Assembly (NCBI GenBank): GCA_000002445.1
Contig: CP000069.1
Coordinates: forward strand, 1,088,001 to 1,152,000
Direction of reading: 5' to 3'
Length of the DNA: 64,000 nt
Source: Trypanosoma brucei
Lineage: Eukaryota
The position numbers and the translations under genes were made by a program. Positions 23,468 through 43,401 of the stretch are shown in pieces (within the stretch, counting starts at the first letter, position 1; every line of letters starts with the position of its first letter). The notes below the pieces were generated by a model, which was given only the letters and a program-made list of their open reading frames with translations, made no database searches and was not told the origin of the DNA.

Positions 23468-24436
23468 CTAACCACCAGCCACAATGCTGAAATGATCTTT
23501 CGGCGGCTGCACAGTCCTAAAGTGTCTCCCCGGTTTGACTGGTACAACAGGGTCCGACTCAACCTTTCCCTCGCTGGCGGCAATCAAAACAATCGCCGCA
23601 GCGACAACAGAAGTTTCCACCACTTTTCGATGACGCATGTACGTTTCCATCAATTCCTCCCGCTTTTCCACCAGAGATTCATAGAACCATGTACGATTGC
23701 GATGGTGCTTCCCCCACGCAAATGCACGCTGGTACATGAAGTAGATACTTACTAGTGCTAAAACCAAATACAAGCGCAAAAACGTCGGACTTCGAGACGG
23801 TAGGTCACCGCTATCACTCAAACGGTCGACTCCACGTTGAAACACTGTCTTTGCGTTGTCTTCTTTCTCGAGGTCCAACGACCGCCTTCGTAACTCCTCC
23901 GTCATCTCTGATTTCGCAGAGAAAGAAGCGTAGCGCGGCTGTTGTGCGCGCACTAATGGCCTGTCGAGCTCTACCCACTTGCCATCATCACGGTTTTGGT
24001 AAATATACTTCCCAGTAGGTGTCACACGCTCAGTAGAGGGATCAAGAGCGCTTAACTTGGCACATTCTTCTTCTGACAAGGTGGCACTCACATGTTCTTC
24101 CGATTGTTGTAACTGTTCAGTGGAGATGGGACTCGGCCAACGCGTCTCAGCATTAGGTTTTTGGCCAACTAACTTCGAGCGCAGCTGCTCATACGCTCCC
24201 TCTTTTAGTAAGAAATTATAAGCCTTATTTATTCGCTCCATTTTTTCACTGTCACCAGTTCCTGAGTCTGGATGGTGAAGTCGAGCCAACTCTCGATAAC
24301 GCATCTTCACCTCCGCCTTCGTAGCTGTGCGGGCAAGACCCAAAACCGCAAAAGGGTCTTTTGAAAGCAAAAAAAACGACGAGCGCATACTATCAAATAC
24401 GAAGGCACTCACCGCGAGCACAACACAAGCGGTCAC
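23468..24436 (-). CDS. J-domain (DnaJ/HSP40-like) membrane protein
   Basis: J domain with the HPD tripeptide: DPFAVLGLARTATKAEVKMRYRELARLHHPDSGTGDSEKMERINKAYNFLL. It has a hydrophobic N-terminus (MTACVVLAVSAFVF) and a C-terminal TM segment (FLRLYLVLALVSIYFMY), with none of the G/F or zinc-finger regions found in type I/II J-proteins. Confidence 0.75.
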   Translation of the reverse strand: MTACVVLAVSAFVFDSMRSSFFLLSKDPFAVLGLARTATKAEVKMRYRELARLHHPDSGTGDSEKMERINKAYNFLLKEGAYEQLRSKLVGQKPNAETRWPSPISTEQLQQSEEHVSATLSEEECAKLSALDPSTERVTPTGKYIYQNRDDGKWVELDRPLVRAQQPRYASFSAKSEMTEELRRRSLDLEKEDNAKTVFQRGVDRLSDSGDLPSRSPTFLRLYLVLALVSIYFMYQRAFAWGKHHRNRTWFYESLVEKREELMETYMRHRKVVETSVVAAAIVLIAASEGKVESDPVVPVKPGRHFRTVQPPKDHFSIVAGG

Positions 24437-24830: not shown

Positions 24831-26910
24831 CATAAAATAGGCGTAAACATTTTTTTAAAAATGACTCAGTAATGCATCCACCAACATTTCACTTACTCCT
24901 TCTTTTCACCAGATGCCTGCTGCTGTTGTTGCTCACCCTGACCTTCTGTGCTGCTGCTACCAGAGCTACCGCTGTTCGCTGCTGCCGCCTGTTGGTACTC
25001 CGTGCGACCACATTCCATCACTGCCTTTTGCAGTTTGTCAGTAGAAGCCGACAGTTCATCCTTCGTCACGTTTGGATTCTCCATCACCTTGCGAAGTTCA
25101 GCCAAAAGGGTACGCACATTCTCCTTCTCAGCGTCCGTCACGTACTTCCATTCCGTCAGTTGTCGCTCAGCAGTGTTAGCCTGAGTCTCAGCATTGTTAC
25201 GCACTTCCACAAGCTCCCGCTTCACACGGTCAGCTTCAGCGTGCATCTCAGAGTCGCGGATCATGTTCTCGATCTGCTCCTTCGTCAACCCACCATGAGC
25301 AGTAATGGTGATGTTCTGTGTTTTCCCAGTTGCCTTGTCCTTCGCAGTTACGTGACAAATACCATTAGCATCAATGTCAAATGTCACCTCAATTTGTGGT
25401 ACACCGCGTGGTGCAGGAGGAATTCCAACGAGGTCAAACTGACCCATCATTTGGTTGTCAGATGCCATTTCTCGTTCCCCTTGGAACACTTTGATTCCGA
25501 CCTGTGTTTGGTTGTCCGCAGCAGTTGAGAAGGTTTGACTCTTCTTCGTCGGGATTGTTGTGTTCTTGGGAATCATACGTGTGAAGACACCACCAAGTGT
25601 TTCGATTCCAAGTGATAGTGGTGTAACGTCAAGCAATACAAGACCCTTCACATCACCACGGAGAACACCACCAAGTGTTGCAGCACCCAGTGCAACGGCC
25701 TCGTCAGGGTTCACACCACGGAACGGTTCGCGACCGAAGAACTGCTTCACAGCCTCCACAACCTTTGGCATACGCGTCATACCACCAACAAGCACAACCT
25801 CAGAGATTTCCTTCAGGTCAACAGCAGCGTCCTTGATGCATTGCTTGCACGGTCCAAGTGAACGTTGTACGAGCTTATCAGCAAGGGACTCAAACTTGCT
25901 GCGGCTCACCATCATCTGCACGTGCTGCGCTCCGTCCTGGTTAGCTGTGATAAACGGAAGGTTTACCTCCGTCTCCATCGTCGTCGAAAGTTCACACTTC
26001 GCCTTTTCTGCAGCCTCACGAATACGCTGCAGTGCCATCCGCTCCTTGCTCAAGTCAATTCCAGATGTCTTGCGGAATTCCTCCAGAATGTGATCAGAGA
26101 GGCAGAGATCAAAGTCTTCTCCACCAAGGTGAGTGTCGCCATTCGTTGCCTTTACCTCAAAAACACCTCCGGCAATTTCAAGTACGGAGATATCAAATGT
26201 TCCACCACCAAGATCATACACGGCAATTAAGCTGTCCTTCGTTTTGTCCAAGCCATATGCCAGTGCAGCAGCAGTCGGTTCATTCACAACACGGATCACA
26301 TTCAGTCCAGCAATCGTACCGGCATCCTTCGTTGCCTGACGTTGCGCGTCATTGAAGTACGCGGGGCACGTCACCACAGCGTTAGATACTTTGCGTCCCA
26401 GGAAGTTTTCTGCCGTTTCCTTCATCTTCTCAAGTACGAATGCACCAACTTGTGAAGGTGAGTATTGCTTCCCATTCCCATCTTGCACCCACGCATCACC
26501 ATTATTGCTCCGAATAATCTTGTAGGGCACATTCTTGATGTCGTGTTGGATGTGCTCATCATCGAAGCGACGACCAATCAGCCGTTTCACCGCGAAGAAT
26601 GTCGACTGTGGGTTCGTAATCGCCTGACGTTTCGCTGCAAGGCCAACAAGTTTTTCCTGTCCTTTGAACGCAACCACAGACGGTGTCGTCCTGAAACCCT
26701 CTGTATTCTCAAGTACGCGTGGCCGGTCACCTTCCATTACTGCAACACAACTGTATGTCGTACCCAAATCAATACCAATCACGTCACCAGTTACCTTCGA
26801 TGACTGCCACCGCGCAAACGGGGCAGACGCCAGGCACATGGGTGCGCATACACGACGGGCCAACATTTTATTACTTCACAAACTACTTCTTACCTTAGAA
26901 ATACTTTACC
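24831..26910 (-). repeat. mtHSP70 repeat unit, copy 1 (CDS plus about 60 bp shared 3' flank and about 45 bp shared 5' flank)
   Basis: Its 3' flank cataaaataggcgtaaacatttttttaaaaatgactcagtaatgcatcc is shared with copy 3 (38346-38407). Its 5' flank ttttattacttcacaaactacttcttaccttagaaatactttacc is shared with copies 2 and 3, then diverges after 26910. Confidence 0.85.
24893..26866 (-). CDS. Mitochondrial-type HSP70 (DnaK-like, HSPA9/mortalin homologue), copy 1 of 3
   Basis: 657 aa, with an N-terminal presequence-like [24 protein letters not shown]70 signatures are present: [25 protein letters not shown] and [19 protein letters not shown]-terminal substrate-binding domain and a Gly/Gln-rich tail ...[14 protein letters not shown] follow. 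Organellar/DnaK-type traits include the gap pattern and GDAWV. The protein sequence is identical in copies 2 and 3. Confidence 0.95.
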
Positions 26911-27424
26911 TCCGAGAAAATATCTAAGAAGTATGCATGTCATATGATATAGAATAAAAAGGAATATCTCATATATTGAAATCAATGAATCTCTTCTATA
27001 ATTGAAGACGTTACAACTGCGTTTCAGATATGAGTGTATATGTAATAATAAAATTCGTAGTGATGTAATAATAATGTTGTATGGATCGGCTCCCTTCACG
27101 CTCAAAAATCACCAGGTACAGTTGAACTTTGTCGCAGCACCCAACAACAATCAACAAGGATTCGTTTATAACCCTCCAGTTTTCGTTCCTCAATTGTGCA
27201 GATAAACATATAGTGAAACGATAAAACTGAAGCACCCCACACTTCACTAGAAGAAATGAGGACAATAACTTAATAATACCCCATTATCCAAATTCGTTGC
27301 ACCATTTATCAAGTAGATCACAAGCCGGTCAAATTAAAGAAACAAAAAAAGCAATAAAACATAATAGTAATGATAATAATACTCCTTGATAGTAAAAAAC
27401 GTTAAAAAATCAGTTAGAAAAAAA

Positions 27425-29562
27425 TCAGTAATGCATCCACCAACATTTCACTTACTCCTTCTTTTCACCAGATGCCTGCTGCTGTTGTTGCTCACCCTGA
27501 CCTTCTGTGCTGCTGCTACCAGAGCTACCGCTGTTCGCTGCTGCCGCCTGTTGGTACTCCGTGCGACCACATTCCATCACTGCCTTTTGCAGTTTGTCAG
27601 TAGAAGCCGACAGTTCATCCTTCGTCACATTTGGATTCTCCATCACCTTGCGAAGTTCAGCCAAAAGGGTACGCACATTCTCCTTCTCAGCGTCCGTCAC
27701 GTACTTCCATTCCGTCAGTTGTCGCTCAGCAGTGTTAGCCTGAGTCTCAGCATTGTTACGCACTTCCACAAGCTCCCGCTTCACACGGTCAGCTTCAGCG
27801 TGCATCTCAGAGTCGCGGATCATGTTCTCGATCTGCTCCTTCGTCAACCCACCATGAGCAGTAATGGTGATGTTCTGTGTTTTCCCAGTTGCCTTGTCCT
27901 TCGCAGTTACGTGGCAAATACCATTAGCATCAATGTCAAATGTCACCTCAATTTGTGGTACACCGCGTGGTGCAGGAGGAATTCCAACGAGGTCAAACTG
28001 ACCCATCATTTGGTTGTCAGATGCCATTTCTCGTTCCCCTTGGAACACTTTGATTCCGACCTGTGTTTGGTTGTCCGCAGCAGTTGAGAAGGTTTGACTC
28101 TTCTTCGTCGGGATTGTTGTGTTCTTGGGAATCATACGTGTGAAGACACCACCAAGTGTTTCGATTCCAAGTGATAGTGGTGTAACGTCAAGCAATACAA
28201 GACCCTTCACATCACCACGGAGAACACCACCAAGTGTTGCAGCACCCAGTGCAACGGCCTCGTCAGGGTTCACACCACGGAACGGTTCGCGACCGAAGAA
28301 CTGCTTCACAGCCTCCACAACCTTTGGCATACGCGTCATACCACCAACAAGCACAACCTCAGAGATTTCCTTCAGGTCAACAGCAGCGTCCTTGATGCAT
28401 TGCTTGCACGGTCCAAGTGAACGTTGTACGAGCTTATCAGCAAGGGACTCAAACTTGCTGCGGCTCACCATCATCTGCACGTGCTGCGCTCCGTCCTGGT
28501 TAGCTGTGATAAACGGAAGGTTTACCTCCGTCTCCATCGTCGTCGAAAGTTCACACTTCGCCTTTTCTGCAGCCTCACGAATACGCTGCAGTGCCATCCG
28601 CTCCTTGCTCAAGTCAATTCCAGATGTCTTGCGGAATTCCTCCAGAATGTGATCAGAGAGGCAGAGATCAAAGTCTTCTCCACCAAGGTGAGTGTCGCCA
28701 TTCGTTGCCTTTACCTCAAAAACACCTCCGGCAATTTCAAGTACGGAGATATCAAATGTTCCACCACCAAGATCATACACGGCAATTAAGCTGTCCTTCG
28801 TTTTGTCCAAGCCATATGCCAGTGCAGCAGCAGTCGGTTCATTCACAACACGGATCACATTCAGTCCAGCAATCGTACCGGCATCCTTCGTTGCCTGACG
28901 TTGCGCGTCATTGAAGTACGCGGGGCACGTCACCACAGCGTTAGATACTTTGCGTCCCAGGAAGTTTTCTGCCGTTTCCTTCATCTTCTCAAGTACGAAT
29001 GCACCAACTTGTGAAGGTGAGTATTGCTTCCCATTCCCATCTTGCACCCACGCATCACCATTATTGCTCCGAATAATCTTGTAGGGCACATTCTTGATGT
29101 CGTGTTGGATGTGCTCATCATCGAAGCGACGACCAATCAGCCGTTTCACCGCGAAGAATGTCGACTGTGGGTTCGTAATCGCCTGACGTTTCGCTGCAAG
29201 GCCAACAAGTTTTTCCTGTCCTTTGAACGCAACCACAGACGGTGTCGTCCTGAAACCCTCTGTATTCTCAAGTACGCGTGGCCGGTCACCTTCCATTACT
29301 GCAACACAACTGTATGTCGTACCCAAATCAATACCAATCACGTCACCAGTTACCTTCGATGACTGCCACCGCGCAAACGGGGCAGACGCCAGGCACATGG
29401 GTGCGCATACACGGCGGGCCAACATTTTATTACTTCACAAACTACTTCTTACCTTAGAAATACTTTACCACTTACCAACTTGTCTATTAAACCGATAAGA
29501 AGAAGCATTGAGTGGGAGAATGTTTTTTTTTTTAAACAGCTTTAGAACTTTGTTCAATAGTT
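27425..29562 (-). repeat. mtHSP70 repeat unit, copy 2 (CDS plus about 135 bp extended 5' flank shared with copy 3; 3' homology to copy 1 limited to about 27 bp)
   Basis: Its 5' flank, through ...gggagaatgtttttttttttaaacagctttagaactttgttcaatagtt, matches 40382-40518 apart from one g/a SNP (ccaacttgtc versus ccaacttatc). Its 3' flank diverges from copies 1 and 3 upstream of tcagtaatgcatcc. Confidence 0.85.
27452..29425 (-). CDS. Mitochondrial-type HSP70 (DnaK-like), copy 2 of 3
   Basis: A 657-aa protein identical to copy 1. Its nucleotide sequence differs from copy 1 at 3 positions (27629 A versus G; 27914 G versus A; 29414 G versus A), all synonymous. Confidence 0.95.
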
Positions 29563-30855: not shown

Positions 30856-31872
30856 TCAAATAGGAATGGCTAGTATGTGTGAAACACCGTATTTAGTCGA
30901 GGAGAGAGCAGCCCATAAATCACTCTGTTGCAACATAACGGCAGGCAGAGACCATGATTCGGTATCAGGGACCGTTACGGATGAGAGCTTCTCCGCTCCG
31001 CTTGAGGGTGGCCCAGACTCATTCGTAAGTAACGAATGCAAATCCCAGTACCTCGTGGGTTTGGGGTCCTCCTTCAAATCGAGACACGTCAGCTTCGCAG
31101 AGGTGTCTCCTGCCGCTATGTAGCCATTCCGCATCGCCACAGACCTGATAGGGGCCCGCTCTTTACCGGTTGAAAATGCTTCTTCCCTAACATTCCCCTC
31201 TAAGCACCTCAATACAAACACTCGACCACTAACAGTGCCGGTTGCCACCGCGCCAGTATCCGGGGAGGAGGTAATACTGATAATCTGGTCAGGAACGGCT
31301 AGAATCACCACGGGTTCGTGTCCACGTCTCACGTCATACAACATGGCTTTACCATCGTAAGCGGCAACAACAAGTGTGTTCTGAGTGAGTGCGGTACCAC
31401 CGACGACGCAGGGCTTTGGAATGTGGAGGTTGATTCGCGCGGTCGATGTCTCCAAGTCAATTATCTGTGCATCAGTGGGAGAGCAGGCCAGAAGAAGTGA
31501 AGGTTCATTCGGTACCTCCTTGAGTGAGAGCACAGCAGCTTTGTTCTGAAATGAATAGTGTTGCACCACATTCTTCGAGTGACGGGAGACAAGTACAATA
31601 TCGCCACTTGACGATCCAGTAGCAAAGCACGAATCATAAGAAACGAAACTCGAGGAAATGACGGCACCCTCACCAAAATTACCATGAGGAAAAGTTTCTA
31701 CATGCGTAACTGCTTGTCTTGCTCCGCATTGGGCGTGTTGTAAGTCTCCCATGTGAAATATGTGAGCCCCATTCATCATTGTGCTTGCAAGGCAGGCGTC
31801 CTCATTGCTTGCTTGCGTTAGGCACGATATACAGCCTTGCACCTCAAAGCAGGACGATCTCTCTAGCTTCAT
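30856..31872 (-). CDS. Hypothetical protein, possibly a beta-propeller (WD-repeat-like)
   Basis: A 338-aa ORF. Weakly repeated motifs of the kind seen in WD-like blades (GDIVLVSRHSKNVVQHYSF; TLVVAAYDGKAMLYDVRRG; VATGTVSGRVFVLRC; YIAAGDTSAKLTCLDL) recur at roughly 40-50 aa intervals. There is no canonical GH...WD, so the call is tentative. Confidence 0.45.
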   Translation of the reverse strand: MKLERSSCFEVQGCISCLTQASNEDACLASTMMNGAHIFHMGDLQHAQCGARQAVTHVETFPHGNFGEGAVISSSFVSYDSCFATGSSSGDIVLVSRHSKNVVQHYSFQNKAAVLSLKEVPNEPSLLLACSPTDAQIIDLETSTARINLHIPKPCVVGGTALTQNTLVVAAYDGKAMLYDVRRGHEPVVILAVPDQIISITSSPDTGAVATGTVSGRVFVLRCLEGNVREEAFSTGKERAPIRSVAMRNGYIAAGDTSAKLTCLDLKEDPKPTRYWDLHSLLTNESGPPSSGAEKLSSVTVPDTESWSLPAVMLQQSDLWAALSSTKYGVSHILAIPI

Positions 31873-32230
31873 TGTTTCCGGTTGCGGCTACCGGTTACTG
31901 CTTACAGCCAAACAGCAATACCTAGTAGTAGAAAGAATATCACAGCTATGCCGCTTTCGTGATGGGCCAAGAAAACTGGAGGGGAGAAATAGAAAATACG
32001 CAGTGGGAAGGAATTGAGATAAGCAACAGAACATATCGGTAACGCGCAACCTCCGCAACACTGAGGAAAGAAACGGAAAACGCACTCGCACACACGCACG
32101 AACATGATACTCTCACATAGTCCTCATTCGGCTCGGACATTCAACACAACCGCAGGCATACTATTCTTAAGCCAGGAGCCTCTTCACACCACCCCAATGG
32201 AGAGTTTCCAGCAACATACTTCGCTACTTA

Positions 32231-32917
32231 TTAACAGTGTTCTTTGTCTAATGGGGCCCTGCCACACGAACGCTTTTTGAAAAACTTGAATGGGTAAAAG
32301 ACAATCCCGATAATCGAACCTATTGCAACGGCTGCAGGAAGGTGAATGGGGGAGTAAGCGAGTGCACATTTGGTGTTGAGTCGCACAAACTCGCGGATCC
32401 GTTCTCCCCATGTACGCTCGTTGAACAGCGCCCACATGCCTGGATAGAAAAGATGGGAAGCTAAAAGACACGACAACCCCGGGACCTGCGCACTGATAGG
32501 TCCGAGCCAAGGCATAAAACCATGCATCGCCTTCTCATTTATTACACCAGGCTCAATAATGTAGTAGTAGGAGAGCCAACTGGCAATAAAGTTTACGTAA
32601 AAGAAATCGCTCATCATGCGCGGGATCAGTGTCTTCTTCGTGTCCTGTGTCTGCGACAGCTTCAGCAATGGAGAAGAGGGGGCGGAAACACAAAATGGAA
32701 CCGCAAAGACCGTTGCACAAATGGTTGTGCGTATGATGCGTTTAAATGTCAAATAGCCAGCAACCTCCTGGCGTTGTGCCGGCTCATCGTATTTCGTCTC
32801 TTTTCCTCTCGGAAGCCTAATGTACGGAATATCGCCTTCAGTCTTAACTATGAGCATCGTCACGTTGCGGTTTCGACAGACGGCATTCACCCTTTGATGC
32901 CATGGAAAGAAAAGCAA
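32231..32917 (-). CDS. Hypothetical small multi-pass membrane protein
   Basis: An ORF of 228 aa, or 208 aa from the internal MLIVKTEGD. Hydrophobic segments are TTICATVFAVPFCV, FFYVNFIASWLSYYYII and LPAAVAIGSIIGIVFYPF. No family was assigned. Confidence 0.4.
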   Translation of the reverse strand: MLFFPWHQRVNAVCRNRNVTMLIVKTEGDIPYIRLPRGKETKYDEPAQRQEVAGYLTFKRIIRTTICATVFAVPFCVSAPSSPLLKLSQTQDTKKTLIPRMMSDFFYVNFIASWLSYYYIIEPGVINEKAMHGFMPWLGPISAQVPGLSCLLASHLFYPGMWALFNERTWGERIREFVRLNTKCALAYSPIHLPAAVAIGSIIGIVFYPFKFFKKRSCGRAPLDKEHC

Positions 32918-33337
32918 ACAAGCAAAAAAAAAGGTGGAATGTACTCAGAGATGGAGAGAAACATGAAGAGGAGCGGAACAGAAATGGGGTCGATAATATC
33001 AAAGAGAGTAAAGGGAAGAAAGAAGAGAGGCAACTGACTAACAGGTGAGAGGAAAATTGTCGCACCGTCTTTTCATTAACAACGGAGACAGCAAACGCAC
33101 AGACAAACCGTCAGCCCTTTCTTTCACACCGACACACACACACAAATATATGTATATATATGTATATATCATTTTCTGCATTTCATCGTACCATAATAAA
33201 GTAGCAAATGTTTACAAAATATAAATTACAGCAATAAATAACTAGCGATTAAAGAACAAATACACCTACTCATGACGACTGCACAGTGACATTCACACGC
33301 GGCTATACAGCAGTAAACCCGAAAACACAAGTTAAGC

Positions 33338-34777
33338 TTAATCCACTTCCTCCATACGCAGCACCTTGCACCAGTGGGTAGCCTGCCCAGCCCGTCGCTG
33401 AATTTTATCAGTGTCAAGAAGTTTGGGGTCTACATCGATTAGCTCACTGGTTTCTTCCGTGCATAACTCAAGTTGACGGACTCTGTAATGGAAAGTTTCA
33501 TCCACAGACTTGGTGAAAAAGAGGGAAACGCACGCGTTCATCAGCACACCTCTACAGTCGCGTAATATCCTCTGCGCCTCCTGAAGAACAGTGAGCGTTC
33601 TGTCAAACGACTCCTTCCGGTCTCGAAGTTGGGCGAGTTCGCGCGCTCGCTCCAAACCTTTTCCCAGTGATTGTTCCTCAAGGACGAGGCTCCTCTTGTG
33701 GTTGGTCCATCTTGTGTAATAACTGAGAAAGATCTTTTCAGCGGTGACTTCTCCCACTGATTCACCCCTCTGACACTGATAATACATGTTGTTATGCTGC
33801 ACCCAGGGACCAAGACAAACCCAACAGTATTCGTGGCGGCACCTTGTGCACGTCATATGATTGCAGCCCTTGTCCTTTTCGATCGGGACATGACAATTTG
33901 GACACTCTTTGGTATTCGACTGAATGTACACTAATGAAGGTTCGTACTCTTTAATCAACTTCCTCCACTTCTCTAGCATCTCACAGGTTGCGGGGGCATG
34001 GGGCTTCCCAGTGCATTTGAAACAGAACTGCAGATCACACCTCGCACAACAAACGTCCGGTCCGGACCGCCGAGGGACAGCGACTCGAACGATTCCTTCA
34101 CACGGCAATTCGTTGGGGCAACAACGCATGCTTGGGTGGTTGCTAAGGTACTCGGTGAGAAACCGTTGCTGGGCACGCTTTAATTCCTGCGGCGGCAGCA
34201 ACAATTCCAAAGCGCTCATTGTTACGAGACTACAGCACCCTTGTTTGGGACACCGTCTCTCCAGTAAGTCCTGAGATTTGTTGACGGCGTACACAAGATT
34301 TCTTCTCAAACATTCCGCGCAGAAAAAGTGATGGCACCTCGCGAGCGCCACTCCGTCACCAACACTAACACTTTCCTCGCATACAGGGCACACAATTGGT
34401 TCAGTATTTTTTACCAATGGCGGACCCTGTCCAACACCATAAGTAATACCTGTGGTTGAGTAGTCTGTTATATTCAGTTGACAGTTGATGCTACTTTGTG
34501 AATTCATGTAGTTCTCAAGCGTGTCGTCATCCAATTTCCAGTTATAGTGTCGAAGAACCAAAAACGCAGCCTCTTCTGGGAGGTCAAGGATTTCACTAGC
34601 CTTCTCCACGTCATCGTGGAGTTCCTTCATAGCATCACGAGCCGAAACCGTAGTAAAGATGGTTAAAATAGTGGACATGCCTTCCGGTTGCCCCGCCATA
34701 CCAAAGTGGGCCACGTCAAACGACTGATCGTCGTGATCACAAACATCATCGATATTGCCACACGAATTAACGTTCAT
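33338..34777 (-). CDS. RBR (RING-between-RING) E3 ubiquitin ligase, Ariadne-like
   Basis: Acidic N-terminus with a UBA-like stretch EEAAFLVLRHYNWKLDD. RING1: CPVCEESVSVGDGVALARCHHFFCAECLRRNL. IBR: RCPKQGCCSLVT...CCPNELPCEGIV...CARCDLQFCFKCTGKPHAPATC. RING2/Rcat, which holds the catalytic Cys: KECPNCHVPIEKDKGCNHMTCTRCRHEYCWVCLGPW. A C-terminal helical Ariadne-like domain follows. Confidence 0.8.
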   Translation of the reverse strand: MNVNSCGNIDDVCDHDDQSFDVAHFGMAGQPEGMSTILTIFTTVSARDAMKELHDDVEKASEILDLPEEAAFLVLRHYNWKLDDDTLENYMNSQSSINCQLNITDYSTTGITYGVGQGPPLVKNTEPIVCPVCEESVSVGDGVALARCHHFFCAECLRRNLVYAVNKSQDLLERRCPKQGCCSLVTMSALELLLPPQELKRAQQRFLTEYLSNHPSMRCCPNELPCEGIVRVAVPRRSGPDVCCARCDLQFCFKCTGKPHAPATCEMLEKWRKLIKEYEPSLVYIQSNTKECPNCHVPIEKDKGCNHMTCTRCRHEYCWVCLGPWVQHNNMYYQCQRGESVGEVTAEKIFLSYYTRWTNHKRSLVLEEQSLGKGLERARELAQLRDRKESFDRTLTVLQEAQRILRDCRGVLMNACVSLFFTKSVDETFHYRVRQLELCTEETSELIDVDPKLLDTDKIQRRAGQATHWCKVLRMEEVD

Positions 34778-35076
34778 AAATTTTTTAAAAAATTAAACAC
34801 TGGGTGACCGAGTACTCTTACCCTCCACACACTAATTTTGCTCTTACGAAGTCCTAAGGGGTGTAAAAGAGTTACAAAATGGATTTTCTACATGTTAAAA
34901 CTAAAAGTAGGAACACATAACAACCTCATTAAATGCCCTCATACTGGTAAGCAAGGGTAAATGCAAATAGACCCCAACATGCAGATGAATAATACAAAGA
35001 TAGCGACGCGTTCTCTTAAACGTATTCGTTAAAGAGGTGGTGGAGGGGGCTGTTAATATAAGATAACAAAAACTGC

Positions 35077-37464
35077 TTACTTCATCGACACACTTTGCCC
35101 AAGTGCCCATCGTTTATACCATTCCACGTCCATGGGGCTGACGCGGGGCCTCACCTTCTGCAACGCGGCATCAACGTTTTCGGTAGAAATGTACGGACTC
35201 TTTACCCCAGCCGTCACACACTGAAAGGCTGCTTCCTTGATAACTGCAACAACCTCGGCGCCAGTGTAACCCTCCGTCCGAGCAGCCACATAATCCGCAT
35301 CGAGTTCCGGCGATAAAGGTATATTTCGAAATTGAATGCTGGCAATCATCTTCCGCTCATTGATGTCCGGCAGCCCAACATAAACCTTTCGGTCTATGCG
35401 ACCAGGACGTAGAACCGCCGGGTCTATGTTATCAGGGCGATTTGTGGCGGCGACAAACACCAATGCATCTGTACCCTCGTTGAGAGCAGCAGGAAGACCG
35501 TCTAGTTCGGTTAAAAATTGAGAAATAACACGATCTGCCACACCACCACGACCACGATGTCCGCACATACCATCAAGCTCATCGATGAAGACAACACATG
35601 GTGCGGCGGCACGAGCACGCGCAAAAATGTCACGAACTGCCTTCTCGCTGTCACCGACCCACTTTGAGAATACCTCAGGCCCTTTAACCGAAACGAAATT
35701 CATTTTAGACTCATTGGCGAGCGCCTTCGCCAACATTGTTTTGCTGCACCCCGGGGGACCGTACAAGAGGACTCCTTTCGGTGGTGAAAGATTGAACTTA
35801 CGAAACACCCACTGCTGCTTTCCGAGGCACCATGCCACACAGTCCTGCAGCGTCTTTTTGGCCACTTCGCTACCCCCAATATCACTCCATTTTACGGACG
35901 GAATAGAAACCTGAAACTGTCTAAGAGCAGATGGAGGCACAATCTTTATCGCCTCTGTTATAGAGGAATCGGTTATTTCAGTCTTCCCAGTTTCCTTAAA
36001 TGCTTCAATGGATGCCACGTCAAGTAATCGAACGAGGTCCCGCTGAGTGAAGCCATTCGTCGACTCAGCCGCTAGAGAAACAAAACTTGCCGTAACTTTC
36101 GCTTGCCCCCCAAATGTTTTCAGACGGTTTTGAAGGAACTCGCGACGCTCCTCTGCGGACCCAGGTGCCAGTAATTTTACCTGCTCACCAAAACGGTCGT
36201 ATGTTAGTAGTGACCGTGGTAAAGACTCCACAGAAGCAGCAGAACCCACAACGCGTACATCCAACTGACGAATCCGAATGTCATCTAGTTCACTAGCCAG
36301 AGTGGACGCTAACAGTCCCTTTGCCCACCCAGATTCAACAACTCCATTGTCTCCAGTGGCACAGACAAGATGAAGGTCATCAATGATTACCGTGGACGGG
36401 GCGCCAGCTTTCGCGCGAACAAATACTTCTCGAAGAACGGTCGAAGAGGAGATATCACACATGTTTCCCTGAGACAACACCTCAACACTCACCGTTTCCA
36501 CCTGCCGTGAGTGAAGAGTTGCAGCCTCATGCGCCTCCCTCCTCAAAAAGTAACTCTTACCGGTGCCTGTATCCCCCAACACGAGTAAGTGAGATTGCTT
36601 TTTTTCCACCCCAACCGGCACAGGTTCGCCATCAAACAACTCAGTTTCACAGACTGTACCGCGCCCAATATACCTAATCTTCGACCCATCGATAAGAATC
36701 CCCAAATCGATTTGTCGGACATCCGTATCGCCCTCAACGCATCCCTCAGCTACGGATTTACAACAACATTCCAACACATCAACGTAATATGGAACCGTGC
36801 CAACATGCAAGGCAGCTCGCATCCCGCGGAACACCAGCCGCCGTTGATACCGCCGGCGAAATGCAGAACACACTTGAAGGAATGGAATGTCGGTGGAGCT
36901 TGTCAACCCATCTGCACCAACAGCGATTCGTGCTTCCTTTGTTATTTCCAAAACCAGAGACGAGAGCGGTATTAGAGGACAGATGTCCTTAGCAACAGAT
37001 ACAGTCACCTGTTTCCCACTGAATGCAGCAGCCACTTCATCAGCAAGCATAATGGTCTGTGAAGCACATGAAGAGGAACAAAATGCCTCTACGAATGCCC
37101 GAACAGATCCATCACCTTCCACACACAACACCGCTCCACTAATGATTCCTAACTCCTTTAAAGAGTGAGGCGAAAGCCGTGCCTCATTGGAGGGCAAACA
37201 ACTATCTGAACGGACATTCAGGGAAACTGCCACGAAGCTTTTACTTCCTTCACTGCCACAATTAACGTCGGCAACCTTCGCCCCGGACAACACTGAGGTA
37301 GTGGATTTCATGTCATTGTGTCGCATATGTTCACCGCGTTGATTAGGGATTTTTAAGCGCGCATCTCCACCAGCACCGCCACCGGAACCATCATGATGGT
37401 TATTTTCATTGTTGCTACCACGCCGCCCTTCACGGTGGTTCGGCCGCCTTGCTTTGGCGCCCAT
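35077..37464 (-). CDS. Type II AAA+ ATPase with degenerate D1 and canonical D2 (CDC48/NVL/AFG2/PEX1-6 family)
   Basis: The D1 P-loop is degenerate (LLVLGDTGTGKSYFLRREAH). D2 is canonical: Walker A GVLLYGPPGCSKTMLAKALANE, Walker B CVVFIDELDG, SKWVGDSEKAVRDIFARAR, and second region of homology/Arg-finger ATNRPDNIDPAVLRPGRIDR. A basic Gly-rich N-terminus (MGAKARRPNHREGRRGSNNENNHHDGSGGGAGGD) precedes D1. Confidence 0.85.
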   Translation of the reverse strand: MGAKARRPNHREGRRGSNNENNHHDGSGGGAGGDARLKIPNQRGEHMRHNDMKSTTSVLSGAKVADVNCGSEGSKSFVAVSLNVRSDSCLPSNEARLSPHSLKELGIISGAVLCVEGDGSVRAFVEAFCSSSCASQTIMLADEVAAAFSGKQVTVSVAKDICPLIPLSSLVLEITKEARIAVGADGLTSSTDIPFLQVCSAFRRRYQRRLVFRGMRAALHVGTVPYYVDVLECCCKSVAEGCVEGDTDVRQIDLGILIDGSKIRYIGRGTVCETELFDGEPVPVGVEKKQSHLLVLGDTGTGKSYFLRREAHEAATLHSRQVETVSVEVLSQGNMCDISSSTVLREVFVRAKAGAPSTVIIDDLHLVCATGDNGVVESGWAKGLLASTLASELDDIRIRQLDVRVVGSAASVESLPRSLLTYDRFGEQVKLLAPGSAEERREFLQNRLKTFGGQAKVTASFVSLAAESTNGFTQRDLVRLLDVASIEAFKETGKTEITDSSITEAIKIVPPSALRQFQVSIPSVKWSDIGGSEVAKKTLQDCVAWCLGKQQWVFRKFNLSPPKGVLLYGPPGCSKTMLAKALANESKMNFVSVKGPEVFSKWVGDSEKAVRDIFARARAAAPCVVFIDELDGMCGHRGRGGVADRVISQFLTELDGLPAALNEGTDALVFVAATNRPDNIDPAVLRPGRIDRKVYVGLPDINERKMIASIQFRNIPLSPELDADYVAARTEGYTGAEVVAVIKEAAFQCVTAGVKSPYISTENVDAALQKVRPRVSPMDVEWYKRWALGQSVSMK

Positions 37465-38345: not shown

Positions 38346-40518
38346 CATAAAATAGGCGTAAACATTTTTTTAAAAATGACTCAGTAATGCATCCACCAAC
38401 ATTTCACTTACTCCTTCTTTTCACCAGATGCCTGCTGCTGTTGTTGCTCACCCTGACCTTCTGTGCTGCTGCTACCAGAGCTACCGCTGTTCGCTGCTGC
38501 CGCCTGTTGGTACTCCGTGCGACCACATTCCATCACTGCCTTTTGCAGTTTGTCAGTAGAAGCCGACAGTTCATCCTTCGTCACGTTTGGATTCTCCATC
38601 ACCTTGCGAAGTTCAGCCAAAAGGGTACGCACATTCTCCTTCTCAGCGTCCGTCACGTACTTCCATTCCGTCAGTTGTCGCTCAGCAGTGTTAGCCTGAG
38701 TCTCAGCATTGTTACGCACTTCCACAAGCTCCCGCTTCACACGGTCAGCTTCAGCGTGCATCTCAGAGTCGCGGATCATGTTCTCGATCTGCTCCTTCGT
38801 CAACCCACCATGAGCAGTAATGGTGATGTTCTGTGTTTTCCCAGTTGCCTTGTCCTTCGCAGTTACGTGGCAAATACCATTAGCATCAATGTCAAATGTC
38901 ACCTCAATTTGTGGTACACCGCGTGGTGCAGGAGGAATTCCAACGAGGTCAAACTGACCCATCATTTGGTTGTCAGATGCCATTTCTCGTTCCCCTTGGA
39001 ACACTTTGATTCCGACCTGTGTTTGGTTGTCCGCAGCAGTTGAGAAGGTTTGACTCTTCTTCGTCGGGATTGTTGTGTTCTTGGGAATCATACGTGTGAA
39101 GACACCACCAAGTGTTTCGATTCCAAGTGATAGTGGTGTAACGTCAAGCAATACAAGACCCTTCACATCACCACGGAGAACACCACCAAGTGTTGCAGCA
39201 CCCAGTGCAACGGCCTCGTCAGGGTTCACACCACGGAACGGTTCGCGACCGAAGAACTGCTTCACAGCCTCCACAACCTTTGGCATACGCGTCATACCAC
39301 CAACAAGCACAACCTCAGAGATTTCCTTCAGGTCAACAGCAGCGTCCTTGATGCATTGCTTGCACGGTCCAAGTGAACGTTGTACGAGCTTATCAGCAAG
39401 GGACTCAAACTTGCTGCGGCTCACCATCATCTGCACGTGCTGCGCTCCGTCCTGGTTAGCTGTGATAAACGGAAGGTTTACCTCCGTCTCCATCGTCGTC
39501 GAAAGTTCACACTTCGCCTTTTCTGCAGCCTCACGAATACGCTGCAGTGCCATCCGCTCCTTGCTCAAGTCAATTCCAGATGTCTTGCGGAATTCCTCCA
39601 GAATGTGATCAGAGAGGCAGAGATCAAAGTCTTCTCCACCAAGGTGAGTGTCGCCATTCGTTGCCTTTACCTCAAAAACACCTCCGGCAATTTCAAGTAC
39701 GGAGATATCAAATGTTCCACCACCAAGATCATACACGGCAATTAAGCTGTCCTTCGTTTTGTCCAAGCCATATGCCAGTGCAGCAGCAGTCGGTTCATTC
39801 ACAACACGGATCACATTCAGTCCAGCAATCGTACCGGCATCCTTCGTTGCCTGACGTTGCGCGTCATTGAAGTACGCGGGGCACGTCACCACAGCGTTAG
39901 ATACTTTGCGTCCCAGGAAGTTTTCTGCCGTTTCCTTCATCTTCTCAAGTACGAATGCACCAACTTGTGAAGGTGAGTATTGCTTCCCATTCCCATCTTG
40001 CACCCACGCATCACCATTATTGCTCCGAATAATCTTGTAGGGCACATTCTTGATGTCGTGTTGGATGTGCTCATCATCGAAGCGACGACCAATCAGCCGT
40101 TTCACCGCGAAGAATGTCGACTGTGGGTTCGTAATCGCCTGACGTTTCGCTGCAAGGCCAACAAGTTTTTCCTGTCCTTTGAACGCAACCACAGACGGTG
40201 TCGTCCTGAAACCCTCTGTATTCTCAAGTACGCGTGGCCGGTCACCTTCCATTACTGCAACACAACTGTATGTCGTACCCAAATCAATACCAATCACGTC
40301 ACCAGTTACCTTCGATGACTGCCACCGCGCAAACGGGGCAGACGCCAGGCACATGGGTGCGCATACACGACGGGCCAACATTTTATTACTTCACAAACTA
40401 CTTCTTACCTTAGAAATACTTTACCACTTACCAACTTATCTATTAAACCGATAAGAAGAAGCATTGAGTGGGAGAATGTTTTTTTTTTTAAACAGCTTTA
40501 GAACTTTGTTCAATAGTT
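38346..40518 (-). repeat. mtHSP70 repeat unit, copy 3 (dispersed copy carrying both the copy-1-type 3' flank and the copy-2-type extended 5' flank)
   Basis: Its 3' flank at 38346-38407 matches 24831-24892 of copy 1. Its 5' flank at 40382-40518 matches 29426-29562 of copy 2. It is separated from the tandem pair by four unrelated genes. Confidence 0.85.
38408..40381 (-). CDS. Mitochondrial-type HSP70 (DnaK-like), copy 3 of 3
   Basis: A 657-aa protein identical to copies 1 and 2. At the three polymorphic sites it carries G (38585), G (38870) and A (40370). It therefore matches copy 1 at two sites and copy 2 at one. Confidence 0.95.
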
Positions 40519-40948
40519 GTTGATATATGTTATTGCTTTCTGTTGTTTTTTTTTAATTTAGTTGTGTAGATAAAAAAATTGTGACACATACTTGGAAAAT
40601 AGTATCTTATTTGTTTTCCTTGGCAGTCACTAGTGTAACGTTGTTTTTCTTGTTAAGCTTAACAGGTTTTAACGTTATACTGTGTTACTGCACGAACAAG
40701 CATTGAAAGAATAATTCTTTTTTTTCTAAGTGACTGAATTTTTTCTTTTTCCAACTGCCTTACCATTCATAAAGAGGTTGTGGAAACTTTTTGTTCGTCT
40801 CTTTGTGGCGGTGTGTTTCGGTACAAAATTGTTTCAAGCACCCCACTTCTGACCTGTGAGCAACTGTTGTATTAAACGCTCCTTTACTTGTAATTGTTTC
40901 ACCTGTTTTGGTGACATCACTTGCTCTTCAAACTCTTTGTTGTTATTT

Positions 40949-42319
40949 TCACAACGCTCGAATAAGGAAGATTTTCTTCTCGTTTACCACTTCAAAATAT
41001 GGGGAAATTCCTTCATGGTAGAGCTGCAGCACGCGGCTCCAATACGACTCACCTCCTATGATAGTTGAGAGAACAGACTGTGCACGTAGCTGCCTTTCTT
41101 CCACCTGCGCAAATTGAGAGATCGCCGTATAGCAGTAATTAAAAACAGCCTGCAAGTGGGCCGCCTTTTCCAACCGATAAGTGAGATTATGTCCCTCGTT
41201 ACTGGGATCCAAGACGCTTATTTGCGCATTGGGGTGCACCTTACTCGTTGGTTCTCTCAAGCCACGTGCTGTTACAGAGTGAGAAAACATGTCAAAATTT
41301 GCACAGAACCCATACGTGAGGAAAAAATCCATCAGCAACCTGCCAGTGTCAGGTGTGTCGTTGGCATCGTATGAATTAAAAATAGCTACAAGCATTGTGG
41401 CAACTGCTTCGCTATTCAGTGCTTCCGGATTCGTGCCTGTGTCATCGAGGATTTTGTTTTGTCTAAGTAAAGCGTCGAGGAGGAGAAACGTCTGCCGACA
41501 TGCCTCGTTCGACGCGACAGCGGAGGCGAAAAGCCTTGATGCCACTTCCACCCTGCATGCCTCAGCTCCATATCGTACGTTCATTCGCAGACCGGACCGA
41601 CTGTCAGTAAGTAGTAGACACATCACATTCCGATAGTCATAGCAAAATTCCAACTGGAACCCTGCGTTATTGGTGATACTCTGCAGGTGCATCTGCGTGT
41701 ACTGTTTTGCATCGGGTGTCACAACCGTGTTTTTGGCATAAAAATGAAGTGTCATGTCCTTCAGCGGGGGTAACCCAGCAGCCGTTGTTGACATCGGATG
41801 CAGCTCCGCGGTCGGCCATAGCTCCCGCAACATAGCCGTGACTGAGGTGACGACAGCCTCGTAACAGTAGAGTTCCAATGCTGTTGGACGTAAGAATGAT
41901 GAAAATAGCCTCACTTCCTCAGTTACTGTATCTGGCACACTCATGCCGATACACCATGGGGGATGCGGCCGGCAGGTGCGGGCCAGTGTCTTTAATAATG
42001 GTCTGGTCGCAACCAGCACCACATTTGTTGTGTCTATGGCCTGCTCATGAGACACTGTACAGGCTGGGGTGGAACGCAAGGTGGAGCGGCGCGAGCTCGT
42101 TGAGCTGGAGGGGCGGCGCATTTTGCGGAACATATTCGGCGTTCCAAGACTTCCAATATTAGCCTGAGACCCGCCAAACGACACCGGAGTAAACTGTTCC
42201 CTACGGTCACTTGGTTGAGCATAACCTGAAGGTACTGGTGACGATATTGAAGCCTGCCTCCCGTGTTGCTGGGAGCCGCTGTTGGCAACTCTCTCAGCAT
42301 CGTCTACAGGACCAAACAT
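40949..42319 (-). CDS. Nucleotidyltransferase-fold protein (Cid1/TUTase/non-canonical poly(A) polymerase-like) with an apparently degenerate catalytic motif; putative pseudo-enzyme
   Basis: MSTTAAGLPPLKDMTLHF aligns with the pol-beta NTase signature FGSxxTGLxLPxSDIDL, but the second Asp of DxD is replaced (DMT). A PAP/OAS1 substrate-binding-like segment LLMDFFLTYGFCANFDMFSHSV matches the PAP-associated consensus (compare LLLGFFEYYGxxFDYxxxVISI). The first 55 codons of the ORF, from 42484, are hydrophobic and low-complexity, so the Met at 42317-42319 (MFGPVDDAERV) is preferred. Confidence 0.45.
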   Translation of the reverse strand: MFGPVDDAERVANSGSQQHGRQASISSPVPSGYAQPSDRREQFTPVSFGGSQANIGSLGTPNMFRKMRRPSSSTSSRRSTLRSTPACTVSHEQAIDTTNVVLVATRPLLKTLARTCRPHPPWCIGMSVPDTVTEEVRLFSSFLRPTALELYCYEAVVTSVTAMLRELWPTAELHPMSTTAAGLPPLKDMTLHFYAKNTVVTPDAKQYTQMHLQSITNNAGFQLEFCYDYRNVMCLLLTDSRSGLRMNVRYGAEACRVEVASRLFASAVASNEACRQTFLLLDALLRQNKILDDTGTNPEALNSEAVATMLVAIFNSYDANDTPDTGRLLMDFFLTYGFCANFDMFSHSVTARGLREPTSKVHPNAQISVLDPSNEGHNLTYRLEKAAHLQAVFNYCYTAISQFAQVEERQLRAQSVLSTIIGGESYWSRVLQLYHEGISPYFEVVNEKKIFLIRAL

Positions 42320-43401
42320 CCGCACAAGTGCAACTCCGGGTGCTTCCAGTATCCGATGTATATTTCCAAACAGCGCGAGAGAAATGCAGATATAGAAAGC
42401 GGAGAAGAAAAGGCAAGCATTCAGACAGATCACCAATTGTACGTGTTTATGTTGCGAAAAAGAAAAGAAGACGGAATTAACCATTGTGATGTTAAACAGA
42501 GGAAGTGAACAAATTTATTATCTGCTGTTGCTTAATATTGATATTTGCAATCATAATAAAAGGGGTTTCCACTTCATTAGAGTATCGCATCACGATGTGC
42601 TTCACCTACTTCGCGTCCCCTTCATTTTGTGTACTCCCAACGTGCGCCAACCATCACCAAACCCCTTCATGAGGAAACTGCAGTGGAGGCTCACTAATGT
42701 CCAAAGTGTATCCTACAATAAACGAAACAAACAAACAAACATAATAGTAGGAGTAAACGCCTCTTCAGTATTTAGTTTGTACACCAACATAATGAGACAA
42801 GGAATTGCGTGCCGGATACCTCCTCCCACAACCATTCCATTCACTCAATCACACATAAATGAACACAAATACTTTTGCATCCGATTAATACTCTACTCTA
42901 CTACAACTCTTTATTGCCTCACCAACTGTGATGTTGAATCGATGGCGACGAAAGTTGATGACGGCTAAACCGTGTTAACGACAAAATCATCAGCTTCATT
43001 GAAATAACCTTCAGTGAAATGAGAGATGAATGGTGAAGAAAAGAAGCACATATACATTTTCTGTAGCGGCACGCAAATATGTTAACCGGAAGGACGCTCA
43101 TCTCTGCAAGACAACGAAAAAAGAAATGAAAAGTAACATACAAAAATAGACAGCACATTAACTCGCTTCTTCCTTCATTGTCCCAATAACTAATTGACAG
43201 AAAGCAACCTGTTAATGCAAACACCAAGGGTATGGAAAAAAAAAATTGTATAAATCATACATGTACATAACCAACAAGACGAACTGCTGCACGAAAACTC
43301 CGAAGAGAAAATACAGGGGAGACAACAACGCAAGGACTTCATTTTTACTCTCTCTTTTTTTTGTCTAACTAAAAAAATAAAACATAAAACATCTGCTATC
43401 A

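Follow-up and report, generated by a model that had tools for sequence, protein, structure and literature searches.

Within the window analysed here, a 64-kb stretch of chromosome 6 of Trypanosoma brucei brucei TREU927, one heat-shock gene occurs three times, and the locus raises the question of how the copies have stayed nearly identical while the DNA around them has not. The ORF list gives three minus-strand CDSs of 1974 nt each, including the stop codon, with identical 657-aa translations (Table 1). Copies 1 and 2 lie head to tail with a spacing of 585 nt, and between copy 3 and copy 2 there are four unrelated genes, about 9 kb. The order of transcription is 511-aa gene, HSP70 copy 3, AAA, IBR, ~208-aa gene, WD40, copy 2, copy 1, DnaJ, and the placement of all genes here on one strand is consistent with a single polycistronic unit. 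Apart from the three HSP70 units, the window has no long repeats. The sequence-only reading from which this work started had assigned the feature to 25070-29414, a range that takes in no more than the SNP positions in copies 1 and 2; the feature itself reaches 40518.

Table 1. Features of the mtHSP70 locus (positions in the window)
Feature	Position	Strand	Basis or remark
DnaJ-domain gene, downstream anchor	23468..24436	-	Pfam DnaJ; 66% identity to same-position T. vivax gene
Homogenised 3' flank, copy 1	24831..24892	-	62 nt identical to copy 3 flank
mtHSP70 copy 1	24893..26866	-	ORF; second member of downstream tandem pair; adjoins DnaJ-domain gene
Homogenised 5' flank, copy 1	26867..26910	-	44 nt identical in all three copies
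Unique core (514 nt) of 585-nt copy 2/copy 1 spacer	26911..27424	-	blastn-short
Shared 3' flank, copy 2	27425-27451	-	27 nt common to all three copies
mtHSP70 copy 2	27452..29425	-	ORF; first member of downstream tandem pair
Homogenised 5' flank, copy 2	29426..29562	-	137 nt, 136/137 (99.27%) identical to copy 3 flank
Conserved four-gene block between the two HSP70 sites	30856..37464	-	ORFs and Pfam; single-copy
WD40 gene	30856-31872	-	Member of four-gene block
~208-aa protein gene	32231-32917	-	Member of four-gene block
IBR/RING gene	33338-34777	-	Member of four-gene block
AAA ATPase gene	35077-37464	-	Member of four-gene block
Homogenised 3' flank, copy 3	38346..38407	-	62 nt as in copy 1; first 27 nt also as in copy 2
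mtHSP70 copy 3	38408..40381	-	ORF; single copy at upstream site
Homogenised 5' flank, copy 3	40382..40518	-	137 nt common to copy 2
511-aa gene, upstream anchor	40949..42484	-	59% identity to T. vivax and 55% to T. cruzi same-position genes

The identity of the genes is clear. Their product matches exactly the proteins AAZ11933.1, AAZ11934.1, AAZ11939.1 and CBH11874.1, recorded as 'heat shock 70 kDa protein, mitochondrial precursor', and the Pfam HSP70 domain (PF00012) is full-length, with residues 29-624 aligned to positions 1-598 of the 599 in the model (E = 1.6e-266). The ORFs are those of the known mitochondrial HSP70 (mtHsp70, DnaK/HSPA9-type) genes Tb927.6.3740, Tb927.6.3750 and Tb927.6.3800; going by the order of the identifiers, these are probably copies 1, 2 and 3, respectively. 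The Arg-rich N-terminus looks like a putative mitochondrial presequence, and mitochondrial localisation of mtHsp70 has been reported (Tyc 2015). According to the same study, all three copies encode the same protein but have different UTRs, and kinetoplastids carry two to six mtHsp70 copies (Tyc et al. 2015, mBio 6:e02425-14). The supplementary table of Jackson (2007) holds array Tb46 on chromosome 6, with two copies of 1974 bp at 1112893-1117425, which corresponds to window positions 24893-29425 (both spans are 4533 bp). Copies 1 and 2 are thus a tandem array in Jackson's sense, and copy 3 falls outside the array as defined there.

Exactly three columns vary across the three CDSs, all at third codon positions and all synonymous, so that the initial count of three silent SNPs in 1974 bp stands, with the same coordinates and bases and an unchanged protein. 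Given for copies 1, 2 and 3 on the plus strand, they are G/A/G at 25070/27629/38585 (CDS position 1797, Asn AAC/AAT), A/G/G at 25355/27914/38870 (position 1512, Cys TGT/TGC) and A/G/A at 26855/29414/40370 (position 12, Arg CGT/CGC). Copy 3 differs from copy 1 at position 1512 alone and from copy 2 at positions 12 and 1797, and copies 1 and 2 differ at all three. These sites had been read as a mosaic with conflicting groupings, an argument that is invalid because singleton sites among three sequences cannot conflict: every variable site here is a singleton and fits a star tree. Once the remaining T. brucei copies are used for polarisation, all three sites agree with a single tree, ((copy 1, copy 3), copy 2), and none is incompatible with it. 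Allelic differences or the assembly consensus could also account for the three SNPs.

Outside the CDSs, identity falls from 100% to background at 44 or 137 nt on the 5' side and at 27 or 62 nt on the 3' side. The boundaries are therefore as sharp as had been claimed, but they lie 27-137 nt from the CDS rather than the 45-135 bp first given. Beyond the shared flanks, blastn-short searches (word 7) returned chance matches of 11-12 nt only, so the outer flanks are unalignable and not merely diverged; likewise, the spacer core between copies 2 and 1 gave only chance hits to other HSP70 flanks (blastn-short, word 7). Directly upstream of the 44 nt shared by copy 1 is an AG preceded by a pyrimidine-rich tract, and these 44 nt probably lie within the 5' UTR. 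More generally, the shared flanks would correspond to UTRs. The position of the boundary varies among strains and among species. Thus, the shared 5' stretch is 137 nt in TREU927 versus ~157 nt in T. b. equiperdum and T. b. gambiense, T. cruzi copies have 567 nt of 5' flank in common, and in T. vivax a tract of 2701 nt is common to both sites.

Identical CDSs between dissimilar flanks had been taken as a signature of gene conversion. The pattern does not suffice by itself: a recent duplication limited to the CDS produces it equally well, and it is because of the cross-species synteny alone that such a duplication is excluded. In T. vivax and T. cruzi, as in T. brucei, HSP70 copies flank both sides of the AAA-IBR-~200-aa-WD40 block in the same gene order, and the outer neighbours of the locus are orthologous across the three species. 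With HSP70 present at both sites, between orthologous neighbours, in each of the three species, the two-site layout is old and predates the divergence of T. brucei, T. vivax and T. cruzi.

In spite of this age, copies always cluster with others of their own species and not with those at the matching position. One-to-one pairing of copies by site was looked for, as an outcome that speaks against recent conversion; species clades received 100% bootstrap support and a positional clade of 'upstream' copies 0%. At four-fold degenerate sites, paralogues within a genome differ at 0-1/339 (T. brucei), 0/349 (T. vivax) or 2-4/343 (T. cruzi) positions, that is 0-1.2%, versus 141/318 to 216/312 (44-69%) between species. 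Paralogues are thus nearer to each other than to any orthologue, which is what the sister-species comparison proposed at the outset looks for in support of conversion. Nei-Gojobori dS agrees, with 0.002-0.007 in T. brucei, 0.000 in T. vivax and 0.009-0.018 in T. cruzi within genomes and 0.67 to >2 between species, a distance at which synonymous sites are saturated.

The same figures bear on whether selection on synonymous sites, for codon usage or mRNA structure, could keep old copies identical without any exchange. HSP70 genes are generally highly expressed, and constraint on this protein is very strong (dN between species 0.04-0.05 versus dS of at least 0.67). With 44-69% of four-fold sites different between species, however, synonymous sites are not frozen but free to change, and selection on them is rejected on this ground. 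It also fails to account for the strain comparison given below, in which non-coding flank and CDS variants change jointly in all copies of a strain, something that codon selection cannot explain; next to no credence is left for this account. The claim that conversion, rather than purifying selection alone, maintains the identity is accordingly supported by synteny, by clustering within species and by synonymous sites that are free to vary.

A recent lineage-specific duplication without conversion, by birth and death or unequal crossing-over, would make the copies alike simply because they are young. Copy number per site is indeed fluid: TREU927 has two downstream copies and T. b. equiperdum one in a gap-free assembly, T. 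vivax has two upstream copies and retains, at its downstream site, a remnant of a second copy ~115 nt long, and in T. cruzi the upstream copies number two or three. The abrupt loss of alignment in the flanks, in place of gradual divergence, is also what a CDS-limited duplication gives. Against this, the pair of sites is old, being occupied in three species, yet the copies of the layout share 99.6-100% identity. Any unequal crossover from one site to the other would also double or remove the four-gene block, but that block is single-copy everywhere, and precise reinsertion of a CDS-sized segment at a pre-existing site is mechanistically gene conversion. For the inter-site pair, recent duplication is therefore largely refuted by the conserved synteny. 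As to copies 1 and 2, their near-identity may owe something to a fairly recent tandem duplication, which counts against conversion as the sole cause; the 514-nt spacer core resembles neither parental flank, however, and so this duplication is not fresh either. As an account of the locus, recent duplication without conversion is considered unlikely.

Comparison among T. brucei strains addresses the timing of homogenisation. At CDS positions 381, 522, 840 and 1860, all TREU927 copies have one state and all T. b. equiperdum and T. b. gambiense copies another; position 1734 is specific to both T. b. equiperdum copies and position 9 to two T. b. gambiense copies. Flank variants, like those of the CDS, co-vary between the two sites by strain. 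Neighbouring single-copy genes have a pS of 0.020 between strains, 3-10x the paralogue dS of 0.002-0.007. In light of the low paralogue divergence and the strain-specific changes common to all copies of a strain, homogenisation postdates strain divergence and has continued within T. brucei, which bears out the description of conversion as ongoing. Inside the T. brucei CDS, with 11 variable sites in seven copies, there is no four-gamete incompatibility, and no tract or mosaic is demonstrable. Among the T. cruzi copies, 44 of 325 informative site pairs fail the four-gamete test, but allelic recombination and exchange between paralogues are inseparable there.

Because reads from near-identical genes can be collapsed or a consensus pasted, the three SNPs, or the identity itself, could stem from an assembly artefact. 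In the T. b. gambiense DAL972 assembly the HSP70 genes are plainly misassembled, with gaps of 100-201 N, a low-quality stretch (CDS 629-981) behind a spurious protein of 91% identity, a 223-aa fragment, and 3' flanks apparently swapped between the two sites. Given the gaps and the apparently swapped pieces, the site labels of the gambiense copies are unreliable. TREU927, moreover, is a diploid shown as one consensus, and its SNPs could be allelic. Near-identity nevertheless recurs in independent assemblies (TREU927, T. b. equiperdum, T. vivax and several T. cruzi strains), none of the loci used from these four contains N gaps, and unique flanks anchor each copy. Tyc 2015 also takes the three genes as real and aims RNAi at all of them. 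An artefact is thus very improbable.

In all, near-identity has very probably been kept by repeated gene conversion between copies at anciently shared sites. The process would be based on homologous recombination, by inference RAD51-type with non-crossover resolution, and through it the copies would repeatedly overwrite one another. Each tract would comprise the CDS and tens to hundreds of nucleotides of adjacent UTR and would halt where homology ends. Conversion would in this way spare the outer intergenic DNA, leaving it to drift beyond recognition while the CDSs stay near-identical. Unequal crossing-over or tandem duplication and loss would additionally alter copy number per site. There is no signal of GC-biased conversion, HSP70 GC3 being 0.511 versus 0.42-0.54 in 13 neighbouring genes. 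The likely benefit would be dosage of one uniform essential chaperone, a rationale that may be set beside the view that dosage replaces gene-specific promoters in T. brucei (Jackson 2007).

Concerted evolution of T. brucei arrays is documented (Jackson 2007; Jackson 2010, T. b. gambiense genome), and the present locus resembles those arrays closely. Their CDSs are identical or nearly so, with occasional silent changes only; tracts often cross start and stop codons into UTRs; terminal flanks are curtailed or wholly different; and variants are subspecies-specific. The array Tb46 itself is entered in Jackson 2007 with two copies, without the dispersed third, and is absent from the main text. Tyc 2015 treats the same three genes in a paper on function (kDNA maintenance), without analysis of nucleotide identity, synteny or mechanism. 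In Jackson's account, copies split off by unrelated genes or UTRs usually retain orthology across species and escape homogenisation, and ectopic conversion is very rare. Here, by contrast, the copy four genes away has not escaped, in all three Trypanosoma species examined. This is the sole nuance beyond published work; both the concerted evolution of arrays in T. brucei and the identity of the three mtHsp70 genes are already in print, and the locus opens no new question.

The homologous locus of Leishmania is the HSPA9 array on chromosome 30, LmjF.30.2460-2490 and LmjF.30.2550 (Drini et al. 2016, GBE 8:1980). Several copies there follow the WD40 gene and precede the DnaJ gene, in numbers that vary by species, and the 5' ~400 codons are identical in all copies within a species. 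In the final copy ahead of DnaJ, homogenisation is incomplete: over codons ~400-600, 33-44% of third positions and 27-34 residues per 100 codons are different, and the poly-Q tail has been lost. This copy is a diverged isoform; in T. brucei, by contrast, the copies are uniform over their whole length. In animals, Kudla et al. are said to have described, in 2004, gene conversion between neighbouring inducible HSP70 paralogues in which coding regions were homogenised and flanks differ; those genes are reportedly cytosolic and heat-inducible, with promoters of their own and a rise in GC. The T. brucei gene, in contrast, is of mitochondrial type, lies in a polycistronic unit and has no GC3 excess.

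One further reading concerns why the separated copy is included. The identical 2-kb direct repeats kept on either side of the block in T. brucei, T. vivax and T. cruzi might not simply follow from dosage selection but be selected in their own right, as a substrate for reversible amplification or loss of the AAA-IBR-WD40 block, or conversion might be directed here by some property of the locus, for instance transcription-associated breaks in a gene with very high expression; taken jointly, these proposals are held to be improbable. Repeat-mediated amplification occurs in Leishmania and provides an analogy for the recombination-substrate idea. If true, such selection or targeting would explain why the separated copy does not escape, unlike the usual case of Jackson 2007.

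With repeated conversion as the preferred reading, the locus is a clean example of interlocus conversion in a parasite, chiefly of teaching value. In practice, the three genes are indistinguishable by CDS-based probes, RNAi or short reads, and only UTR sequence beyond the 27-137 nt of shared flank is copy-specific. Short-read or draft assemblies mis-build the locus, as in the T. b. gambiense DAL972 record, and phylogenies of mtHSP70 mirror the history of the species, not that of the paralogues.

Three mitochondrial HSP70 (mtHSP70) genes lie within this window, with translations that are one and the same 657-aa protein, and the sequence-only reading was right as to the presence of the three coding sequences, with the correction that all lie on the minus strand. 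This protein agrees exactly with the T. brucei "heat shock 70 kDa protein, mitochondrial precursor", which has three accessions in TREU927 (AAZ11933, AAZ11934, AAZ11939) and a further one in T. b. gambiense; the Pfam HSP70 match spans its full length, and it ends in a poly-Q acidic tail of the type described as typical of mitochondrial HSP70. Tyc et al. (2015) named the three genes Tb927.6.3740, Tb927.6.3750 and Tb927.6.3800 and described the proteins as 100% identical and the UTRs as somewhat different; the identity of the genes and the difference in their UTRs are thus already published. Array Tb46 of Jackson (2007) has a span of 4533 bp, exactly that of copies 1 and 2 here, which places the window on TREU927 chromosome 6, at roughly 1.088-1.152 Mb.

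All genes of the region have the same orientation. In the order of transcription, the 511-aa gene is followed by copy 3 (the upstream site), a block of four genes encoding an AAA ATPase, an IBR/RING protein, a protein of ~208 aa and a WD40 protein, then copy 2, a 585-nt spacer and copy 1 (together the downstream site), and a DnaJ-domain protein. The HSP70 units are the only long repeats within the 64-kb window, in which a scan for RNA families gave no match. A very large ORF of unassigned type, transcribed in the same direction as its neighbours, has no Pfam match at E <= 0.01. Long ORFs also run antisense to each HSP70 copy, and a gene caller yields such a product at a T. cruzi locus (L009) as well. 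The one opposite copy 1 matches PF10712, "NAD-specific glutamate dehydrogenase" (E = 1.3e-23), a family regarded as spurious, translated from the strand opposite HSP70/DnaK; the match is not evidence of a gene.

Coordinates of the HSP70 genes, other features of the window and segments of the homologous loci (L-numbers) compared
Feature	Sequence	Position	Strand	Remark
mtHSP70 copy 1	window	24893-26866	minus	1974-nt ORF, 657 aa
mtHSP70 copy 2	window	27452-29425	minus	1974-nt ORF, 657 aa
mtHSP70 copy 3	window	38408-40381	minus	1974-nt ORF, 657 aa
Large ORF	window	2477-12145	minus	3222 aa
ORF antisense to copy 1	window	24872-25528	plus	PF10712 match
ORF antisense to copy 2	window	27386-28087	plus
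ORF antisense to copy 3	window	38387-39043	plus
5' flank used for end-points	window	40382-40540		compared with L001 and L002
T. b. equiperdum downstream copy	L014 (CM010677.1)	10001-11974		single copy
T. b. gambiense DAL972 segment	L002 (FN554969.1)	12561-13899		N gaps
T. b. gambiense DAL972 segment	L003 (FN554969.1)	12281-15045		N gaps
T. vivax stub	L004	12564-12693		shared tract ends at 12662
T. cruzi tandem upstream copies	L011 (MBSY01000159.1)	7463-14372		three copies
L. mexicana last copy before DnaJ	L015	17995-19905
L. braziliensis last copy before DnaJ	L017	10001-11908

Nucleotide alignment of copies 1-3 contains exactly three variable columns, at CDS positions 12 (Arg), 1512 (Cys) and 1797 (Asn), all third codon positions and all synonymous; the alignment confirmed the bases and coordinates given for these sites in the sequence-only reading, and that none alters the protein. 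The three differences could be allelic. Homology had been said to stop abruptly 45-135 bp outside the CDS, and identity does collapse there, at a distance of 27-137 nt: on the 5' side 44 nt are common to the three copies and 137 nt (with one mismatch) to copies 2 and 3, and on the 3' side 27 nt are common to the three and 62 nt to copies 1 and 3. Past these boundaries, a blastn-short comparison (word 7) of all five intergenic segments found only chance matches of 11-12 nt, and the outer flanks are unalignable, which is more than merely diverged. With flank similarity gone, the age of the duplication is unreadable from flank divergence, and synteny was used instead. Two other possibilities were tried and set aside: retroposition of copy 1 from an mRNA template, as inspection by eye found neither a spliced-leader remnant nor a poly(A) tract at the boundaries, and a signature of GC-biased conversion, as GC3 of the HSP70 genes is not raised.

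Homologous loci were compared in T. b. equiperdum, T. b. gambiense, T. vivax, several T. cruzi strains, L. mexicana and L. braziliensis. The layout of T. brucei recurs in T. vivax and T. cruzi, where HSP70 copies flank the AAA-IBR-~200-aa-WD40 block on both sides. The genes bordering the locus are orthologous: identity to the T. brucei 511-aa gene is 59% in T. vivax and 55% in T. cruzi, and the T. vivax DnaJ gene is 66% identical to that of T. brucei. The common layout and these neighbours imply that the two-site arrangement is older than the split of the three species. Recent independent duplication therefore fails to account for the near-identity, the more so as the 514-nt spacer core is unique, although duplication does contribute to changes in copy number: T. 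brucei has its extra tandem copy at the downstream site, T. vivax and T. cruzi at the upstream one.

Despite the age of the two sites, the copies group strictly by species. Values of dS (Nei-Gojobori) are 0.002-0.007 within T. brucei TREU927, 0.000 within T. vivax and 0.009-0.018 within T. cruzi, with 0-1/339, 0/349 and 2-4/343 four-fold sites differing, respectively; between species dS ranges from 0.67 to >2, with 141/318 to 216/312 four-fold sites differing. Paralogues are thus far closer to each other than to orthologues (0-1.2% versus 44-69% of four-fold sites), as had been anticipated for conversion. Selection on synonymous sites, which would preserve identity without exchange, is refuted by the near saturation of these sites between species. 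In a neighbour-joining bootstrap on third positions the species clades appear in 100% of replicates and a clade of all "upstream" copies in 0%, the opposite of the one-to-one pairing of positional orthologues that had been named as evidence against conversion. The protein of T. congolense, the closest sister species (P0003), is 96% identical. Grouping by species in an old two-site layout bears out gene conversion, beyond purifying selection alone.

Homogenisation is also evident between strains. Seven T. brucei copies, from TREU927, T. b. equiperdum and T. b. gambiense, vary at 11 CDS sites, and at none of the 11 do copies group by position. At positions 381, 522, 840 and 1860 one base is common to the three TREU927 copies and a different one to every equiperdum and gambiense copy; a variant at 1734 is confined to the two equiperdum copies, and one at position 9 to two gambiense copies. 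The homogenised flank reads CACTCAATG at both TREU927 sites versus CACTTAATG in the other strains, and the 3'-flank homopolymer variant is, within a strain, common to both sites. The shared 5' sequence, compared over ~160 nt upstream of the ATG, measures 137 nt in TREU927, against about 157 nt in the other two strains, which suggests separate conversion events with different end-points. Between strains, pS of neighbouring single-copy genes is 0.020. The TREU927 paralogues are 3-10 times less diverged from one another, which places exchange between the two sites after separation of the T. brucei lineages.

The sequence-only reading had further seen a mosaic in conflicting groupings of the three TREU927 sites. 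This argument does not hold, since any site that varies among three sequences is a singleton, and no two singletons can conflict. Polarised against the other T. brucei copies, the change at position 12 is private to copy 2 and that at 1512 to copy 1, whereas 1797 is C in copies 1 and 3 and T in copy 2 and all other strains; one tree, ((copy 1, copy 3), copy 2), accommodates all three. No four-gamete incompatibility was found among the seven copies at their 11 variable sites, and no internal mosaic is demonstrable in the T. brucei CDS. The flanks do group differently by side: the 5' flank unites copy 2 with copy 3, and the 3' flank copy 1 with copy 3. This is as expected for a homogenised tandem pair and a single copy, where the 5' flank of the site stays with the first member of the pair and the 3' flank of the site with the last.

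At the downstream site of T. b. equiperdum, in a locus with 0 N gaps, there is a single HSP70 copy, which combines the 5' flank of copy 2 with the 3' flank of copy 1. Either copy number is truly polymorphic within T. brucei, whether because a copy was deleted by unequal crossover or because the tandem duplication is absent, or the repeat is collapsed in this assembly. The E582G substitution of this copy (CDS position 1745) is the only non-synonymous difference seen. T. b. gambiense was dropped as a clean population sample for site-specific inference, the public DAL972 assembly being unreliable at the HSP70 genes: it has N gaps of 100 and 201, a 223-aa HSP70 "fragment" and 3' flanks apparently swapped between the two sites. 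The T. b. gambiense protein P0006 (658 aa) is 91% identical because of a low-quality stretch at CDS 629-981 of the second downstream copy, where all its differences cluster as mismatches and indels. Real as it is in this genome, assembly artefact cannot explain the identity of the copies, since the same pattern is present in several independent gap-free assemblies.

Tract ends differ among the other species. The downstream copy of T. vivax has a 2701-nt tract in common with the first of the upstream copies; this tract includes 39 nt of 5' flank, the CDS, a 616-nt inter-copy spacer and the start of a truncated second CDS. The tract terminates inside this ~115-nt stub of the HSP70 CDS 5' end, which lies between the downstream copy and the DnaJ gene and is preceded by the same spacer as separates the two upstream copies; the stub is either what remains of a second downstream copy or the place where a long (2.7-kb) conversion tract stopped. 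In T. cruzi the equivalent pair, first upstream and downstream, shares 567 nt of 5' flank. One T. cruzi contig carries three tandem upstream copies with identical 503-nt spacers, and other contigs carry two. The 13 T. cruzi copies, variable at 37 sites, cluster by contig or haplotype. The four-gamete test is failed by 44 of the 325 informative pairs, a result in which allelic recombination and paralogue exchange are inseparable. The Leishmania copy nearest to DnaJ, the last of its series, is identical to its same-species sister copies over codons 1-400, differs at 33-44% of third positions over codons ~400-600 (the substrate-binding region), with 27-34 residues changed in the most diverged 100-codon block, and is without the poly-Q tail. 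This last copy is a true mosaic in partial escape from conversion, and is possibly a specialised isoform. Gene numbering (LmjF.30.2550 in Drini 2016) suggests a Leishmania copy upstream of the AAA gene.

Simple unequal crossing-over between the two sites is excluded, since a gain or loss of the four-gene block would follow, and all genomes examined have this block in single copy. Exchange would instead proceed by non-crossover conversion or an equivalent double exchange, in tracts that would begin in the homologous CDS and end where homology ends; tracts of this kind would leave a sharp boundary and free the outer intergenic DNA to drift. The varying copy number at each site is accounted for by unequal crossing-over or by tandem duplication and loss, an example being the single downstream copy of T. 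b. equiperdum. The selective rationale, after the argument of Jackson (2007), may be one of dosage, for a uniform and essential chaperone encoded in a polycistronic genome that has no gene-specific promoters.

The observation is real and its interpretation correct, and the finding is an ordinary one. For tandem arrays of T. brucei, concerted evolution through gene conversion is the published general rule (Jackson 2007), and subspecies-specific mosaics were described with the T. b. gambiense genome (Jackson 2010); no such analysis of this locus specifically was found in the literature. Copies parted from an array by unrelated genes usually retain orthology across species, ectopic conversion being rare (Jackson 2007), whereas here homogenisation persists in a copy four genes away, in each of the three Trypanosoma species examined. 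This homogenised separated copy is the one nuance, and a small addition to the known picture.
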